64,000 bases of DNA from Halarcobacter sp. (GTDB lineage: Bacteria > Campylobacterota > Campylobacteria > Campylobacterales > Arcobacteraceae), in the NCBI GenBank assembly GCA_048571215.1, contig CP182352.1, positions 96,001 to 160,000 on the forward strand, in the 5' to 3' direction. The position numbers and the translations under genes are program-made. Below the pieces are notes generated by a model that was not told where the DNA came from, made no database searches, and saw nothing but the letters and a program-made list of their open reading frames with translations. Below, one piece after another: positions 4,240-11,076 of the stretch; within the stretch, counting starts at the first letter, position 1; each line of letters starts with the position of its first letter.

Positions 4240-4376
4240 CTTTATAAATTTGTCTCTTTTTCAAAATTTCTGCGTTAGCGCGGAAATTTTGTTTCTCACA
4301 TACTTTAGTATGCTCCTATACAAAATTACCCCACTGCCTTGAACTTTTAAAAAATAGCCAATTTTCTAAAGCTATT
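4235..4376. repeat. ~140-bp imperfect palindromic element, ERIC/MITE-like
   Basis: Terminal inverted repeats AATAGCTTTA...TAAAGCTATT, nested internal IRs and a central CATACT-TT-AGTATG hairpin; motif order TGCGTT...TCACATACTTTAGTATGCTCC...GCCTT resembles the ERIC core. Confidence 0.6.
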
Positions 4377-4397: not shown

Positions 4398-4703
4398 TCA
4401 AAACCCGTAAATCAAAAAATCAATTGAGTTTTTTATTTCCTCTTTTTGTTCTTTCAAACTAGTAATTTTAGTTTGTAATTCATTTAGATGCACTGTACCT
4501 ATTTGTGCGGTAATCATATAAAGAGTTATGTCGTTGATTATAAACTTTTTTGTTAAGCCTTGGATAGTTTTTTTATTTATGGCTAATGGGATTACAACTC
4601 TTGTGTTTAGTGAGTTTAGAATATCATTTTGTACATCTAATAAGTAAGGTACAATTTGATTGGTATTTGGGTTTTCATTTTTATATACATCAAACTGTGC
4701 CAT
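4398..4703 (-). CDS. ccdB: CcdB-family toxin
   Basis: MAQFDVYKN...PYLLDVQNDIL..LNTRVVIPL...IKNSIDFLIYGF, the typical CcdB pattern; 101 aa. Confidence 0.9.
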   Translation of the reverse strand: MAQFDVYKNENPNTNQIVPYLLDVQNDILNSLNTRVVIPLAINKKTIQGLTKKFIINDITLYMITAQIGTVHLNELQTKITSLKEQKEEIKNSIDFLIYGF

Positions 4704-4945
4704 TAGAACATCCTACTATCTTGTAAAATCAATCCTTCATTCTCTACATCTTTGTTGTACTTTTCTATGGCTTTTTTATTTTCTTTTTCCCATAGAATTT
4801 TTTTGTCTTCTTTATCTAATAATCCAAGATAAACATGCAAGGCTTCTCTTATGATTTGAGTCTTTTTTTTCCCTGTTTTTTTTGAATTATGATTTAACTC
4901 TTCTATTAGAGTATCTTCTAAGGTTATAGTCATTTTTTTTGTCAT
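4703..4945 (-). CDS. ccdA: CcdA-like antitoxin with an N-terminal ribbon-helix-helix
   Basis: C-terminal WEKENKKAIEKYNKDVENEG...RMF CcdA signature; N-terminal MTITLEDTLIEEL...IIREAL is RHH-like; ATG at 4945 has an AAAGGA RBS; TAATG overlap with ccdB. Confidence 0.82.
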   Translation of the reverse strand: MTKKMTITLEDTLIEELNHNSKKTGKKKTQIIREALHVYLGLLDKEDKKILWEKENKKAIEKYNKDVENEGLILQDSRMF

Positions 4946-5032
4946 ATGAAATCCTTTACCATATTTTACCATACTTTATAAGGATATAGATTTATAATGA
5001 ATAAAATATTAAATAATTAAATTTTTTGTTAA

Positions 5033-6091
5033 CTAAAATTTTTTATTAATTGGTTTAGCTATAAAAAGATATTCAGATAATGCTTTATTTGAACGATTAA
5101 GTGCATAAGAGTGTTTTTTTATTAAATGTATTTTAATTGACATCTGATTTTGTATGAAGAGTTCTTTTAATTCATGAGGGGAAGGTATCCCCTTATTTCG
5201 ATATGAAAAAACAATAATTTTATTTTTATATTTTTTAATTATTTTCTCAATATCAGTATAAATTGTATTTTTTGATTCAAATTCTAAACTTTTCCCAATA
5301 TTTACTTCTTTATTTAGTTTATCGAAATTGATATGATTTTTAAAAGTATCATAGTTTACTAAAGCTTCTAAAAAATGATACCTTGAATGATAATCAACAT
5401 GGGAACCTTTTTCTGATACATAAGGAGGATCTATATATACTAAATCGACATTACTTTTACAAGCAAGTGCAGAATAGTTTACAGAGGTATTCTTTCTGTT
5501 ATTCGAGAAAATGTAGTTATTAACTTCACTACAAAATTTTTTAAATAATTCTACAATATTTTTTTCCCATGTTATTTTATTACCAAACTTTCTTTTTACA
5601 TCATTTGTTCTTAGATTTAGATTCTTTCTATGAAATGTATTAAATGGTCTTTTGATTAGACATGATTGAAATAAAGCATACCATGCGAGATATTTTGATT
5701 TATCATTTTTAAGTTGATTAATATTTTGAACAATGATATCAATTAGTCTATTTTCATCATCTAAATAGTAAATTCCTTGATAATTTTCAGTTATATAATA
5801 ATTATATTCAAAATTAGGCTGTTTAGTTATTATAAAATTAATTTCTTCATTTGTTATTTGATGAGAATTATTTTCTATTAATGCTTTTCCAATAAAAGAA
5901 TTAAATTTAAAAATATCATTATAAACTACTCTTTTTCCTTCAAGTTTAGCTTTGTATGCAAATGTTCCTGTACCACCAAATAAATCAAGCACAGAATCGA
6001 AATTTATGTTTTCATTTTCTATATATTTCCATATTATATTTATAATTTTTCTTTTTGAACCATAATATCTTGTTATAGGTAGTTTATTCAA
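5033..6091 (-). CDS. N6-adenine DNA methyltransferase, D12/Dam class (FokI/StsI-like)
   Basis: RYYGSKRK, LDLFGGTG (motif I), YIDPPY (motif IV) in alpha-group order; CLIKRPFNTFHRKNL segment recalls FokI-type methylase domains. Confidence 0.9.
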   Translation of the reverse strand: MNKLPITRYYGSKRKIINIIWKYIENENINFDSVLDLFGGTGTFAYKAKLEGKRVVYNDIFKFNSFIGKALIENNSHQITNEEINFIITKQPNFEYNYYITENYQGIYYLDDENRLIDIIVQNINQLKNDKSKYLAWYALFQSCLIKRPFNTFHRKNLNLRTNDVKRKFGNKITWEKNIVELFKKFCSEVNNYIFSNNRKNTSVNYSALACKSNVDLVYIDPPYVSEKGSHVDYHSRYHFLEALVNYDTFKNHINFDKLNKEVNIGKSLEFESKNTIYTDIEKIIKKYKNKIIVFSYRNKGIPSPHELKELFIQNQMSIKIHLIKKHSYALNRSNKALSEYLFIAKPINKKF

Positions 6092-6122
6092 TACTTATCT
6101 CACTTTATTTGAAATATGGTGA

Positions 6123-7844
6123 TTAAGCACTTGTATCTAAACTTTTTTCAATTCTAGATCTTAAATTATCATAATATATGTCTGCTATACAGTAAAGTTC
6201 TTTTTTTATTTGACCAGAAATAGGAACTTTAAAACTATATGCTTTATCGTGTTCTGTTATATTATCAACTTTTATTGGATTCTCATCAATAAAAAAGTTA
6301 AATTTATCTTTACAAGTTTCATCACTATTAAAACCGGCAATTATATACTCATCAAGTAAAGTTTTAGTTGAATTAGATTCATATTTAGAAGAAATTTTAT
6401 GTAAATCATTAAATTTCTTAAGTTGTTTTTCTATATAAAATCCTGTTAATTTAGTTTTTGCTTCTACTGTAAAAATTTTATTATTATCTGTAAGTAATAT
6501 AAAATCATATTCTCTATCATTTAGTTTTACACTATAAATTAAATCTATAATTTTTGAAGAACCTTTCATTTCATTAAAGAGTTCTTCTAATAAATCTTCA
6601 AAGAAGTGTTGTTGATAATAAAAACTATATTTTGGATTTAAAGTCATAACTGCACAAATTTCATCTTTAATAGTATTATTACTACTATAATTACATGTTG
6701 CCCCATTTTTGTTGACCCAGCTTCTTAAGCCTCTTTGAGATTGATCATCATGATTTCTACTCCTATCATCATTATAAATTCCAAAAAAAGCTTCTTCTTC
6801 TTTTTTATCAAAGTATGGGACAACAAATTGAAAATGTTTTAAATTGTATAAGGAATAATCGCTTTTTTCTATTTTCTTTTTTATTAAATATGATTTTTCA
6901 AAAAACTCGTCATTACTCTCCAAATCTTTCATATAAAAATTATTCTCTAAACTAGCTAATGTTTCTGCAGTATTATTCCCCTCTTTTTTAAAGTATTTTA
7001 AAAAAGATTCTTTTATATGTTTTCTTTTTTGATAACTATTATATCTTTCATTGTTTGTTGTATGGTCAAGGTTTATTTTTATATATTGGAAATCATAAAA
7101 AGCTTGTTTTTCTTTTTTAATTAGAAATCTAAATTGTTCATATTTAAAAGGAAATATAAATTCTCCCAAAATTATACATTCTATATCGTCAGTGAAATAA
7201 TCTAATTTATATTTATTAATTGTTGGTAAATCTACATTACATTTTTTTAAATTCACATAAGTATCAAACTCATCTTTTATATAATAATTAAGATTATCAA
7301 AATTATATTTTTTATTAATATCATCAAGGTTAATACCAACAAAGTCAACATAAGTTATTTTTTTTAGTTTAATATCATCAATAATTTTCTGAGTATCTGC
7401 AAATTTTTGAATAATTGTTTCTAAATCTTTATTTTGTAAATCTAATTCTGTATATGCATTTACAAATAATTCGCTTAATATTTTATGGTTGATTTTTCTA
7501 ATGATATTTTTTTCTAAATCATTTTTCATATTACTCATAATAAATGTTTTTTCATTTGGGATAATTATTTCACACTTGTGCATAGTATGTAAAATACTTT
7601 GAATATTACTAAATAAGCTTTCTTTTATTTTAGTATTCATTTTAAAATCTAATTTTTCAATTAGTAACTCTTCCTTTGATATATTTAGAAAGCTTTTTAA
7701 TCTTTTTCGGATTTTTTCTTTACTTATACATGGCATTAAGTTTATGGCAGTCTCTAATAAAAGGTTAAATTCATGTATTTTTTCTTCTAAACTATCATTA
7801 ATTGTAATTTGATAATAAGCAAATTGTTCATTTGATTTAAACAC
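6123..7844 (-). CDS. Hypothetical protein with a C-terminal PD-(D/E)XK nuclease-like motif
   Basis: FFEDLL...EYDFILLTDNNKIFTVEAKTK fits E...D-x(n)-EAK; GTG start overlaps the upstream TAG (TAGTG). Confidence 0.6.
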   Translation of the reverse strand: MFKSNEQFAYYQITINDSLEEKIHEFNLLLETAINLMPCISKEKIRKRLKSFLNISKEELLIEKLDFKMNTKIKESLFSNIQSILHTMHKCEIIIPNEKTFIMSNMKNDLEKNIIRKINHKILSELFVNAYTELDLQNKDLETIIQKFADTQKIIDDIKLKKITYVDFVGINLDDINKKYNFDNLNYYIKDEFDTYVNLKKCNVDLPTINKYKLDYFTDDIECIILGEFIFPFKYEQFRFLIKKEKQAFYDFQYIKINLDHTTNNERYNSYQKRKHIKESFLKYFKKEGNNTAETLASLENNFYMKDLESNDEFFEKSYLIKKKIEKSDYSLYNLKHFQFVVPYFDKKEEEAFFGIYNDDRSRNHDDQSQRGLRSWVNKNGATCNYSSNNTIKDEICAVMTLNPKYSFYYQQHFFEDLLEELFNEMKGSSKIIDLIYSVKLNDREYDFILLTDNNKIFTVEAKTKLTGFYIEKQLKKFNDLHKISSKYESNSTKTLLDEYIIAGFNSDETCKDKFNFFIDENPIKVDNITEHDKAYSFKVPISGQIKKELYCIADIYYDNLRSRIEKSLDTSA

Positions 7845-9373
7845 TATAATACTCCATCAAAAAATTTAAGTAGTACTTTTGAAATTTCCTCTTCAATTTC
7901 AAAATAATCAGAATCAATATATAACTCTAGTAAAGTAAATAGTTTCTTTGGATTATATGTTATTAATTCAATTTTATCAGTAATTTTATTATCATTGCCA
8001 AAATTATCTGTTAGAGAAAAGTCTATTTCTTTTGGTATCAGTAAAGTTACATCTTTACCATTTTGAATCGATTTTTTACAATTATTAATTTGATTCTCGA
8101 ATGATGTGTTTTCAAAGAATAAATATATATCTTTGTCTTTAGAAATTAATCTTCTATTTTGTTTATTTACTTCTATGTTTTCATAAGTAGATGTTATATA
8201 AGCTGTTAATGGTGCAAAAATATTTGCATACATATTTTTAAATAAATCATCAAATTCTAATTGAGATTCTTTCTCTTCAACATATTCCTCTATTTCAAAA
8301 TTAGTTATAATTTTTTCTATAGATTCATAATCTTCATTATTTTGTAAGATTTCCATAATTTCTTGTACTAAAGCTCTATTAGTTTCTTCTATTAAGCCTG
8401 CTTGACGAGCACTCTTAACTCTACTAGTGACTTTTTCAGCTGTTGTATTTATTGGTATTTCATTATTTTCAAGTAATGAAATGATTTTTCTTACTAATTC
8501 TTCTATGTTACTTTCATTTATTGGTTTTATTTCTATCCTATCTTTATCTATCCTAGATCTAAATGCTGGATTTTCATTTAAAATATTATCTGCTTGTTTA
8601 TCTCCTGCCGTCATGGCAGTCAATAATAAATGTCCATCTATTTTATTTGAAATATCAATTAACTCTCTGTAAGAAGTTAAAAAGTTTCTTAGTCTAGTTT
8701 TTGATTTATCATATATTTTTTCAATTTCATCAATAGCAAAAATAAACAATTCTTGGTTCTCGTATAATAAATTTAAAAATAATGCAAGTATTTGTGTCAA
8801 TGCATGATTTGTAAAAGGTTTTAAATTATAGTTATTGAAATAAGATTTATAATATAATCTTCCTGTCCCCATTTGAACTAATTCATTAAGTTTTTGTTTA
8901 CTATTTTTATATTTAAAGATTTGTTTAATATATTTTGGAATATCTTCAAATTGTTCATATAATATATCAGTTTCAGTTTCATCAAAATTTTCAATTGCTT
9001 CTATTATTTTTTCATAATGTCTATCATCTAATACATTTAAGAGCATTGATGAAATATTTGGTAAATCTATATCTGCTGTTATATATTCAAAATTGATATT
9101 AAAATTATTGGCATTAGAATGGGTTTTAAAATACAATTTCAAGTATTTAAAAAGATTAGTTTTTCCATTTCCGTAATTACTAGTTAAAATTAATCTATCA
9201 AAATTTTGTTCATCAAGTCTTTCTAACCTTTTTTCTACTTCATTTTTTACATTATGTTGACCTACTATAAAATAAGGAAGCTCTGGAACTAATCCTGCAT
9301 TATATGCTTTGACAATTCTTTTCGAATTTAATTTACTAATTGGTAAATCTTTCCATAAGTTATTTAATTTCAC
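7844..9373 (-). CDS. P-loop ATPase, BrxD/DUF2791-like
   Basis: N-terminal AGLVP...VG motif, Walker A-like SNYGNGKT, Walker B FIFAIDEIE, arginine-finger-like PAFRSRI; GTG start overlaps the upstream TGA (GTGA). Confidence 0.75.
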   Translation of the reverse strand: MKLNNLWKDLPISKLNSKRIVKAYNAGLVPELPYFIVGQHNVKNEVEKRLERLDEQNFDRLILTSNYGNGKTNLFKYLKLYFKTHSNANNFNINFEYITADIDLPNISSMLLNVLDDRHYEKIIEAIENFDETETDILYEQFEDIPKYIKQIFKYKNSKQKLNELVQMGTGRLYYKSYFNNYNLKPFTNHALTQILALFLNLLYENQELFIFAIDEIEKIYDKSKTRLRNFLTSYRELIDISNKIDGHLLLTAMTAGDKQADNILNENPAFRSRIDKDRIEIKPINESNIEELVRKIISLLENNEIPINTTAEKVTSRVKSARQAGLIEETNRALVQEIMEILQNNEDYESIEKIITNFEIEEYVEEKESQLEFDDLFKNMYANIFAPLTAYITSTYENIEVNKQNRRLISKDKDIYLFFENTSFENQINNCKKSIQNGKDVTLLIPKEIDFSLTDNFGNDNKITDKIELITYNPKKLFTLLELYIDSDYFEIEEEISKVLLKFFDGVL

Positions 9374-10485
9374 TTTAAATCCTCTAATATTTTGATATTT
9401 AATATAGGCTTTCTTCTAATATAAAATCTTTTTCTTGAATCTGCTCCACCTATTACATTATTTAATTTTACTTTTTTCCAGTTTTCTCTATCTTCTATAA
9501 GATAATTTAAAAATTCTTGCATTTTATTGTAAGAAAATTTTGCTTCTTTTGCAATATCGTATAAATTAATAAATGCATAGTTTTTTCTATCTTGTTGTTT
9601 AACTAGATTCTTATATATTTTATTTATAATTTGTAAATTTTCTTTATATTTCTCTTTTGGCTTAGCGTTTAGTTTTATAAATTGTTTAGCTTGATTTTCT
9701 ATTTGTTCATAATAATTTTTAACTTCTTCTATATTGAATATTTTTAATTTAAAAGAAGGCTTTATATTTCCATTTAGTCCTATACAATCTATATCTACTA
9801 GCCATTGATTTCTAACAACAATATAATTATTCCAGCTAACAGATGTATACACAAATTTTTTATGAGATAAAGCATCTGATATAAATTTTATAGAATCTTC
9901 AAATTTTGCTTTTTCTCCATGACCACTTATGATTTTAGGATGTTTTATTAATATAATATGCCAAAATATCAATGGAAGAATAAATAATATATCTTCTTCA
10001 ATAATTCTATCAAAGAAAAATTGTTTTTGTTTCAAGGTAAGTTTTGTAAAATCATTTTGAGAAGGATATGAAACTAATTTTAATCCCAATTCTGTTAGTT
10101 TATATTCCTTATCTATAAGACCAAATATTTCTGCGAGCCTTATGTAGTATCCTATGGTTTTAAATAAAGAAAAAACTTTTGTTTCTAATGCATTTTTATC
10201 TTTTTTTGCTAAATTAAATTTTTGTAGGTATTGGATTTGTTCTTTATATTTCTTTAGTTTAAAAAAATCATAAAGCTTTTCTATAGATTCATAACTAGTT
10301 ATGCCATATGTATCAGAAGTTAAATTATTTATATAAGAAGTATTCAATTCTTTTAATATATATATAAAAAATTCCTCTCTAACAGTCTTTTTATTAAATT
10401 TTTTATTTTTTATAAATTTACATACATGAACACAAGATTTTAATCTTGTGTTTGCTGGTCTATGAAGACTCTCAATAAAGTTCAT
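9370..10485 (-). CDS. Hypothetical protein, possibly a multi-winged-helix DNA-binding subunit
   Basis: 371-aa ORF heading the operon; YYIRLAEIFGLI...YKLTELG is a wHTH wing-like motif; basic; AAGGG RBS. Confidence 0.55.
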   Translation of the reverse strand: MNFIESLHRPANTRLKSCVHVCKFIKNKKFNKKTVREEFFIYILKELNTSYINNLTSDTYGITSYESIEKLYDFFKLKKYKEQIQYLQKFNLAKKDKNALETKVFSLFKTIGYYIRLAEIFGLIDKEYKLTELGLKLVSYPSQNDFTKLTLKQKQFFFDRIIEEDILFILPLIFWHIILIKHPKIISGHGEKAKFEDSIKFISDALSHKKFVYTSVSWNNYIVVRNQWLVDIDCIGLNGNIKPSFKLKIFNIEEVKNYYEQIENQAKQFIKLNAKPKEKYKENLQIINKIYKNLVKQQDRKNYAFINLYDIAKEAKFSYNKMQEFLNYLIEDRENWKKVKLNNVIGGADSRKRFYIRRKPILNIKILEDLK

Positions 10486-10850
10486 AAGATTTAGTATACC
10501 CTTTTAATTAAATAGTAATAATATAATGGCATAAAATATGTTATAAAATAATAAATATTATAGATTTTACAATTTATTGATCTTTTTATTTTTATCAAAA
10601 TATTTAAAACTACATAGTATTTAATATTAAATAATCTTCATATATAAAGATTACTTTAAAAAATAATATCCTTTTTATATAGTAAATTTATTAAATATGA
10701 TAACAATAACAAAATTAAAACACCCACCACAATCTTTAATACAATTTAAATACTTGTATATATTTTTATAGTATTCGCACTTATACAAAAGACTAGATCA
10801 ATAAAAAGAGCGGTTGATTTTTTTATTCTTGTACCTGTATTTTAGTACTA

Positions 10851-10882
10851 AATACAACTCAATAAAGAGATTGAGTTGTATT
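10851..10882 (-). terminator. Hairpin just downstream of the small ORF (likely terminator)
   Basis: AATACAACTCAAT-AAAGAG-ATTGAGTTGTATT, 13-bp perfect stem; short U tail. Confidence 0.6.
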
Positions 10883-10894
10883 AAATAAATCTAT

Positions 10895-10990
10895 CTAGTT
10901 ATCTTTTACAAAAAAAGTGATAAACCAAGACGCCAAAGTAAAAGCCAATAAACTTCCTACTACGAAAATCATAATTTCTGTCATATACAT
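10895..10990 (-). CDS. Small single-pass membrane peptide (31 aa)
   Basis: MYMTEIMIFVVGSLLAFTLASWFITFFVKDN; AAAGGAAA RBS, one hydrophobic helix, downstream hairpin. Not in the ORF track. Confidence 0.6.
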   Translation of the reverse strand: MYMTEIMIFVVGSLLAFTLASWFITFFVKDN

Positions 10991-11007
10991 ATAGTTTCCT
11001 TTTTTAT

Positions 11008-11027
11008 AAATGAATACTCATTCATTT
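11008..11027. promoter_or_regulatory. Palindromic operator candidate upstream of the small ORF
   Basis: AAATGAAT-ACTC-ATTCATTT inverted repeat. Confidence 0.5.
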
Positions 11028-11076
11028 TATTGTTGGAATTATAAGGAAATTTAGATTATGTAAATCTTAAGTGGCT

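Follow-up and report, generated by a model that had tools for sequence, protein, structure and literature searches.

A conserved operon with a predicted ORC/Cdc6-clade ATPase and a putative single adenine methyltransferase is likely an undescribed anti-viral defence system

In a 64,000-nucleotide stretch of a Halarcobacter sp. genome (assembly GCA_048571215.1, contig CP182352.1, positions 96,001 to 160,000; hereafter the window), four adjacent minus-strand genes, labelled A to D, likely form an undescribed anti-viral defence system, and we place at about 0.7 the probability that they encode an ATP-dependent restriction-modification (RM) system in which A would read a DNA site, B would act as a ring or switch, C would cut and D would mark self. 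An earlier note on this DNA, made from the letters alone, had proposed that recognition, ATP-driven activation, cleavage and self-marking are split over the four proteins, a division that fits the folds predicted here. The four open reading frames (ORFs) were confirmed at 5033-10485: gene A (9370..10485, 371 aa) for a predicted DNA-recognition subunit, gene B (7844..9373, 509 aa, GTG start) for a predicted ORC/Cdc6-clade AAA+ ATPase, gene C (6123..7844, 573 aa, GTG start) for a predicted nuclease, and gene D (5033..6091, 352 aa, TTG start) for a putative D12-class N6-adenine DNA methyltransferase (MTase). The translational coupling described for A, B and C was located as claimed (GTGA overlap at 9373-9370, TAGTG overlap at 7846-7842), as were the 31-bp gap between C and D and all of the cited motifs, namely AGLVPELPYFIVG, SNYGNGKT and DEIE, E416..E445-x-D447..E461-A-K463, and DPPY.

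The same grouping recurs well beyond this genome. With a B-family alignment of 108 sequences, 22 loci in genomes, 80 in metagenomes and 5 in viral sequences were retrieved, two of the viral ones (L107 and L108, weak partial matches without a B profile match) being left out before counting. Each family profile was built on 9-13 seed sequences, the window's own among them; loci were picked via B, the frequencies of A, C and D refer to B-bearing loci, and the counts include near-identical and broken copies. The results showed that A, B, C and D were all present in 81 of 81 related loci whose flanks reached at least 1.2 kb upstream and at least 3 kb downstream of B (loci with room), while singly, among loci with room, A was found in 95/96, C in 96/100 and D in 92/93. 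The order was A-B-C-D in every locus but L003, whose D sits on the opposite strand, and the junctions were tight, with gaps of at most 35 bp for A-B in 97/100, B-C in 97/98 and C-D in 84/94. Since the same four families stand in the same order in all 81 loci with room, the grouping is more than chance, and the co-occurrence elsewhere on which the idea of a single system depends is borne out. Across 54 non-redundant cassettes (four full-length genes, less than 90% B identity), pairwise identities covaried with Spearman coefficients of 0.87 (A-B), 0.85 (A-C) and 0.83 (B-C), and of 0.59-0.65 for D with A, B and C, kinship contributing to these values. Median identities to the window proteins were 29% for A, 31% for B, 21% for C and 48% for D. 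No fifth gene family recurred in more than 4 of the 22 clustered genome loci, and neither PglZ, PglX, DUF499, a helicase, HerA nor a second methyltransferase belongs to the conserved unit.

The carriers are mostly Bacteroidota with a few Campylobacterota, from gut, soil and water; the named genomes comprise 20 Bacteroidota and 2 Sulfurovaceae, named gut records include Segatella copri and Bacteroides cellulosilyticus, and in a Sulfurimonas record A, B and C are 71-77% identical to those of the window. The B family is sharply bounded (full-length members 440-690 bits, other families at most 77 bits) and the four-gene family is rare: full-length B was found in 0 of 400 sampled genomes of the Bacteroidota phylum, weak partial matches occurring in four, and it was not matched in PLSDB plasmids or INPHARED phages. 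Viral contigs of IMG/VR carry the system, complete in L105 and L106 and truncated 18 codons into C in L104. Together, these data mark the four genes as a conserved operon that moves horizontally.

In the present genome the cassette is a recent insert of foreign origin, since its GC content is the lowest of the genome, B is missing from the other family genomes searched and the corresponding site lacks the operon in the same-genus genomes examined. Its GC of 0.221 lies below every one of 662 same-sized genome windows (mean 0.285), and the AT-richness relative to the flanks that had been noted earlier is real (GC 0.20-0.25 in the cassette vs 0.28-0.34 in the housekeeping flanks). B had no match in 183 other genomes of the same family, and the interval between rho and a glycosylase gene was free of both the operon and the adjoining ccdAB pair in all 14 same-genus genomes examined (14 of 18 listed). 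The flank labels rho, murI, dnaX and hemC are a reading of the translations; the glycosylase label alone has a scan match, below the cut-off.

Gene A was modelled with AlphaFold2 (AF2; predicted local distance difference test, pLDDT, 90.7). It had been described simply as a winged helix-turn-helix (wHTH) protein; a winged helix is indeed predicted at residues 278-371, following a long helix, but the bulk of the protein, residues 1-259, is predicted to fold like BrxA and Type IIS recognition domains. The best structural match was BrxA (7zge; Z score 8.7, 171 aligned residues, root-mean-square deviation (rmsd) 4.4), followed by PaqCI (Z 7.5), N.BspD6I (7.3) and the BrxA homologue 3bhw (7.3), with the BpuJI binding domain (6.4) and FokI (6.0) lower down. 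The top four form one structural family, with Z values middling for a helical protein, and the set matched by A is the BrxA structural family reported in passages of PMC9240713. An Atlas search returned a weak FokI-recognition lead (0.85), Foldseek with the A model gave no match at E ≤ 0.001, and a PDB sequence-profile search gave nothing meaningful. No sequence-profile match to BrxA was obtained with Pfam, PADLOC, NCBIfam or PDB profiles, and the bipartite or tripartite helix-turn-helix (HTH) arrangement of BrxA is seen in A only at the level of the predicted fold.

Gene B, also modelled with AF2 (pLDDT 92.0), is on that model an intact AAA+ ATPase of the ORC/Cdc6/TnsC clade. Its structural matches were Cdc6/Orc1 (Z 15.7, 250 aligned residues, rmsd 3.8), TnsC (14.3), MuB (12.2) and BrxC (11.7), and full-length homologues measure 499-518 aa. 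The Walker A motif SNYGNGKT (residues 65-72, window positions 9158..9181, minus strand) was located by sequence and conservation, and residues G68, G70, K71, D215, E216 and R274 are invariant in 54/54 non-redundant cassettes; from its position, R274 may be the arginine finger. The previous label "BrxD-like" holds in part, in that residues 12-83 alone match PF10923 at 34 bits, above a low cut-off, but B is not a true BrxD (NF033438, 15.3 bits vs a cut-off of 350), and membership of BREX type 2 was rejected because no BrxHI helicase lies in the conserved unit. In the model, the C-terminal alpha/beta domain at about 375-509 has a helix-three strands-helix-strand pattern; it is not followed by a wHTH, and profile tests gave no link to restriction endonuclease (REase) domains, so that its identification as an inactive REase or a paralogue of C found no profile support. 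A BFVD search with B returned generic AAA+ proteins only, and a complex prediction for A with B scored 0.26 against a mark of 0.32, which was counted neither for nor against contact. A sister ATPase family of 520-580 aa is homologous to B along its entire length (hhalign 99.8%; members P0207, P0208, P0211, P0215, P0217, P0220, P0224, P0228, P0231, P0232 and P0248, one of them from Brevibacillus formosus); it was not found in plasmids, and its lone viral match is an unrelated ATPase-subtilase locus.

The presence of TnsC and MuB among the closest folds of B raises the alternative that the operon is not for defence but serves the targeting or mobility of some mobile element, with a TnsC-like ATPase, a target selector and a nuclease, and the copies in three viral contigs and the Tn7-like neighbours of locus L004 can be read in the same way. 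We regard this as highly improbable: neither a transposase, an integrase nor any other fifth gene is conserved, full-length B is missing from the plasmid and phage collections named above, and the conserved MTase would have no role. In L004 (13436-18087, Sulfurovum sp. UBA7648) the adjoining Tn7-like set, made up of TniQ, TnsC and a Mu-type transposase, is a possible vehicle for the system.

Gene C is a predicted nuclease with a C-terminal PD-(D/E)XK domain. Residues E416, E445, D447, E461, K463 and T464 are invariant in 66/66 sequences, which reproduces the conserved E...D...(D/E)xK pattern of the PD-(D/E)XK superfamily in the region from E416 to K463 (6456..6599, minus strand). The NERD profile matches 33 of the 66 members at E ≤ 0.05 (best 1.1e-5), and a PDB profile search with the C-terminal alignment gave four matches, all spanning the motif, the best being Can2 (E 0.001) and DUF1887 (0.009); the alignment also extends to VC1899. 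Conservation and profile matches thus uphold the nuclease-like character formerly ascribed to the 573-aa protein. The N-terminal 400 aa evolve fast, and for C the Atlas offers only a poor model, at pLDDT 0.39. Because its nearest solved relatives are the Can2/Card1 nucleases and its N-terminus is so variable, an abortive infection system was weighed, in which A or the N-terminus of C would sense phage DNA or protein, B would be a STAND-like switch, C would degrade DNA or RNA regardless of site, and D would regulate or shield part of the genome. ORC/Cdc6-clade ATPases act as immune switches according to passages of 10.64898/2026.10.19.760177, which fits such a role for B, and sisters of D sit in operons unlike RM. 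We nevertheless hold it unlikely, as D is kept in nearly every locus with room and belongs to a cassette-specific clade, and A resembles site-specific recognition domains.

Gene D is, from its motifs and family matches, a single-domain D12-class N6-adenine DNA methyltransferase. It carries FGGTG at residues 38-42 and DPPY at 221-224, matches PF02086 (55 bits) and the C-terminal half of PADLOC MTase_II PDLC03261, a model of 643 positions (160 bits), and is the only one of the four proteins clearly recognised by PADLOC 2.0. A putative target-recognition segment (147-175) is highly conserved, 151-175 being the best-conserved 25-residue block. All 58 MTases from cassettes fall into one clade (support 100/99, midpoint root), with DPPY in 41 and DTPY in 16; each locus has at most one D, and the entire host genome contains one D-family gene. 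The closest sisters of this clade are single MTases that belong to unrelated operons. Two groups are more distant, namely the C-terminal halves of two-domain MTases found next to AlwI-family nucleases and the single MTases found next to DpnII-family nucleases (L110, L112, L113 and L124); in both nuclease-linked groups the recognition segment differs from that of D. In L003, ABC is paired with a non-cognate, oppositely oriented D, and this mismatch, with the near-invariant recognition segment, hints that one site may be shared family-wide.

Two operons with sisters of D were seen alongside. One recurs with the MTase, a protein of about 235 aa, a beta-RFAP-synthase-like protein and a Ham1 pyrophosphatase fused to a kinase-like P-loop domain (L003:7415-11739, L109:6926-11323, L123:7847-12801, L142:5512-9924 and probably L143:5461-10043; hosts Rhizobium, Bacteroidota and probably Cupriavidus). 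The two of its proteins scanned, from L003, gave no PADLOC match, and the operon may be another undescribed, nucleotide-linked defence system. The other (L120:6912-10827) combines its MTase with two ATPases, one of AAA_15/ABC type (412 aa) and one of GHKL type (526 aa), and comes from a Pedobacter alluvionis genome that also bears the four-gene system.

For the RM reading we infer the following scheme, contacts between the proteins included. A would read a short asymmetric DNA site; B would form an ATP-bound ring on that DNA, thereby licensing the predicted nuclease C; and D would methylate one adenine on one strand, protecting the host. With neither a helicase nor a second methyltransferase in the unit, the cell would be spared cleavage of its own DNA after replication, as in other hemimethylating systems, if two unmethylated inverted sites, bridged by B oligomers, were needed for efficient cutting. 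B together with A may also serve as the loader of D, the part that MtsA plays for MtsC in MANTIS. One-strand methylation with a two-site rule is the mechanism that we tentatively favour, because relatives of A read asymmetric sites, the unit has one MTase domain only, and MANTIS offers a precedent. According to passages of PMC9240713, FokI and BpuJI read asymmetric sites and BREX sites are non-palindromic; MANTIS, the Gao_RL or Type-2 DUF499 BREX-related system of four genes with an ORC/Cdc6 ATPase, combines such an ATPase with hemimethylation and a preference for inverted sites in the parts of bioRxiv 10.64898/2026.09.23.753747 drawn on here.

The same RM logic could also operate with D fully methylating a palindromic or degenerate-palindromic site, A reading perhaps an asymmetric subset of it, B serving as a loader or as a switch for proofreading, and paired inverted sites being unnecessary. 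Reading of an asymmetric subset is known from PleI/MlyI-type systems. Related single MTases partner DpnII-family nucleases, D is of stand-alone size with sisters that lack A and B, and N.BspD6I is among the top folds of A; in addition, the recognition segment of D is near-invariant while A is only about 30% identical, which together with the non-cognate, opposite-strand D of L003 suggests one shared site and an independent D. Full methylation leaves unexplained, however, why the ATPase is kept in every copy, and the DpnII-linked MTases have a different recognition segment. It is a serious but somewhat doubtful option, and hemimethylation is slightly favoured over it.

Genomic context gives modest support for a defence role. 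For 146 of the 176 listed nearest neighbours (42 loci), PADLOC matches at E ≤ 1e-8 were commoner than among other window genes (34/146 vs 5/52, Fisher p 0.04), and included Septu, AbiE, QatA, Type I, II and IIG RM and several PDC candidates; the five matches of the control genes look like housekeeping cross-matches. A decay asymmetry lends weak support to the RM reading: in five loci (L052, L067, L071, L075 and L076) A and/or C is disrupted with D unbroken to the contig end, no locus pairs intact ABC with a broken D, C and D are both lost from L104, and in L093 B is truncated. Several points weigh against the reading given here. The neighbour matches include mobile-element and weak ones, the control is one genome and the enrichment is modest; the decay pattern is weak as its numbers are small (n=5) and some cases are possibly assembly errors, and D takes up only about a fifth of the coding length. 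A search for the target site by self-avoidance (4-6-mers, synonymous shuffles, 231 cassette genes vs 344 flank genes) found no motif clearly depleted beyond the flanks in 313 kb of cassette DNA. The structural matches of A, of middling Z, also include many generic winged helices. D alone is no proof of restriction, since its closest sisters occur in unrelated operons without a recognised restriction nuclease (L109, L120 and L123), and without A or B; and as single MTases of the wider family serve DpnII-family nucleases, the presence of one MTase fits a palindromic site equally well. A look-up by six organism names found no methylome of a carrier species in the supplements of PMC4752239.

No named system matched the four proteins in PADLOC, Pfam or NCBIfam, and no description of the operon was found in the literature searched, where the supplementary lists of PMC10853773 and PMC12839542 might contain it; in these sources, no full match to an already named system emerged. 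The architecture is less isolated than had been supposed, since published neighbourhoods with ORC/Cdc6, triple-wHTH and REase proteins, and MANTIS, lie near it. The four genes are apparently an undescribed variant of methylation-based ORC/Cdc6-ATPase defence. As an ATP-dependent RM system, the unit would be a relative of BREX, Ssp and MANTIS, which it probably resembles most in its way of working, but one that lacks a helicase.

Likeness to BREX of types 1-6 lies in the predicted fold of A, including the extra C-terminal wHTH that some BrxA variants carry (in section 20 of PMC12839542), in the placement of B in the same ORC/Cdc6 clade as BrxC and BrxD, and in the one adenine MTase. The unit differs in having a dedicated PD-(D/E)XK nuclease and in lacking PglZ, a PglX-type MTase, BrxL, a BrxB match and a helicase; absence of PglZ, a PglX-sized MTase, BrxL and helicase had been claimed before and is confirmed by Pfam, PADLOC, NCBIfam and the analysis of the conserved unit, with no PglZ match in the four proteins and no Pgl/Brx match among the 146 neighbours at E ≤ 1e-8. 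B (499-518 aa) and D (about 350 aa, D12 class) also contrast with the large BrxC, of 1200-1300 aa in section 16 of PMC12839542, and the large PglX/BrxX-type MTase. The operon might still be a minimal BREX-related RM system without helicase or PglZ, a possibility we treat as rather doubtful, in which a FokI/BrxA-type reader nucleates an ORC/TnsC-type ring; that ring alone would link two inverted unmethylated sites and fire the separate PD-(D/E)XK nuclease, and the half-FokI-sized MTase would mark a single strand. In MANTIS itself the ATPase is of the DUF499 type and is joined by a small co-regulator and a helicase-phospholipase D (PLD) nuclease, and DUF499-centred BR systems, as outlined in section 28 of PMC12839542, join a DUF499 ATPase to an N6-MTase and to a protein that contains a helicase; here the nuclease is of the PD-(D/E)XK type and a BrxA/FokI-like protein is the fourth gene. 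Membership of the DUF499, MANTIS, Gao_RL or Hma systems was rejected, as neither DUF499 nor a helicase matched at E ≤ 1 in Pfam or PADLOC.

The nearest printed architecture, in section 22 of PMC10853773, is a set of neighbourhoods with Orc/CDC6, a DndG/SspB/FokI-like wHTH protein and an inactive REase (iREase) or REase, described there with HerA/FtsK or an ASCH-fused REase; that section mentions no methyltransferase. A multi-wHTH recognition protein, an Orc/Cdc6 ATPase and an active REase are common to both, and the C-terminal alpha/beta domain of B might equal their inactive REase. The present unit differs in having no HerA/FtsK match and in having D as a core gene. By analogy with the ASCH-fused REase operons of that section, ABC could be a modification-dependent (Type IV-like) system against modified phage DNA, with D linked to it and mechanistically separate, and D does covary less tightly than A, B and C among themselves. 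We consider this very unlikely, as Pfam, PDB profile and fold searches revealed no SRA, ASCH, EVE or PUA reader in A or C and the near-universal linkage to D would go unexplained. The Ssp system likewise pairs an SspB-like triple-wHTH protein with a Cdc6/Orc-clade ATPase, SspC (in section 19 of PMC10853773), and SspABCD-E thus shares the multi-wHTH reader and the ATPase; its mark is sulfur, whereas the one predicted here from D is adenine methylation, and the four-gene unit has no cysteine desulfurase or PAPS (3'-phosphoadenosine 5'-phosphosulfate) reductase gene.

Classical restriction systems fit less well, and the earlier finding that Type I, Type III and McrBC do not match is borne out by absent family matches. 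LlaJI, LlaI and McrBC resemble the unit in joining an AAA+ NTPase to a PD-(D/E)XK nuclease that acts on unmodified DNA, with methylation protecting; they rely on the McrB GTPase and McrC, and B is instead ORC/Cdc6-like. LlaI restriction reportedly involves three genes in an operon with llaIM. LlaJI has two MTases according to parts of PMC12707154. Membership of McrBC/LlaJI was rejected, with no McrB/McrC match in Pfam, PADLOC or NCBIfam and with B folding like ORC/Cdc6 and TnsC in its model, and so were Type I and III RM, given no HsdS/HsdM/HsdR or Mod/Res matches and a D that matches Type II MTase models. To Type IIS systems (FokI, BpuJI and the AlwI family) the unit is tied by the likeness of A to their recognition domain and by the homology of D to the C-terminal half of the two-domain MTases beside AlwI-family nucleases. 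The single ATP-independent recognition-nuclease polypeptide with two MTase domains that defines them is not seen here: recognition (A) and cleavage (C) are predicted to lie in separate genes with an intact ATPase gene between, and each locus has one MTase domain vs two methylating both strands.

How BREX converts its methyl mark into restriction, and what BrxA does, are open questions in the field. In these 5.5 kb the theme is pared down to four parts, a BrxA-like reader, an ORC/Cdc6 ATPase, a nuclease and a single small methyltransferase, so that reconstitution could test the question directly. In the ATP-dependent RM systems described so far, it is mostly an SF2 (superfamily 2) helicase or the McrB GTPase that links sites. 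If the scheme is true, an ORC/TnsC-type ATPase linking sites alone would be new, the operon would count as a new type of RM, a bridge between Type IIS enzymes and BREX/Ssp, and it would be the simplest place to learn the function of the BrxA-BrxC pair. Common gut Bacteroidota carry the family, and a barrier to phage and DNA transfer that has gone unrecognised in them is of consequence for ecology and for genetic tools.

Further features surround the cassette. Directly downstream of D, 60 bp away, co-oriented with it and within the inserted stretch, lies a ccdA-ccdB toxin-antitoxin pair (4398..4972, minus strand; Pfam CcdA 32 bits, CcdB 93 bits), which may aid retention of the insert and was rejected as a core part of the system because no homologue was found in the 22 clustered genome loci. 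The roughly 590 bp upstream of A (10486-11076) are very AT-rich, with no ORF of 70 aa or more and no evident control (C-protein) gene. A promoter scan was uninformative, with 74 sites vs 64 expected and no terminators. Immediately after rho, an imperfect inverted repeat of about 130 bp (4243-4370), with several diverged copies elsewhere in the genome and two matches in the same-genus locus L131, looks like a miniature inverted-repeat transposable element (MITE) or a repetitive extragenic palindromic (REP)-type element at the insertion edge. The rho-glycosylase slot is variable; in L131 (692-5387) it is occupied by HipA and a PLD-helicase-DUF3427 nuclease, so that it may be a small hotspot for defence genes.

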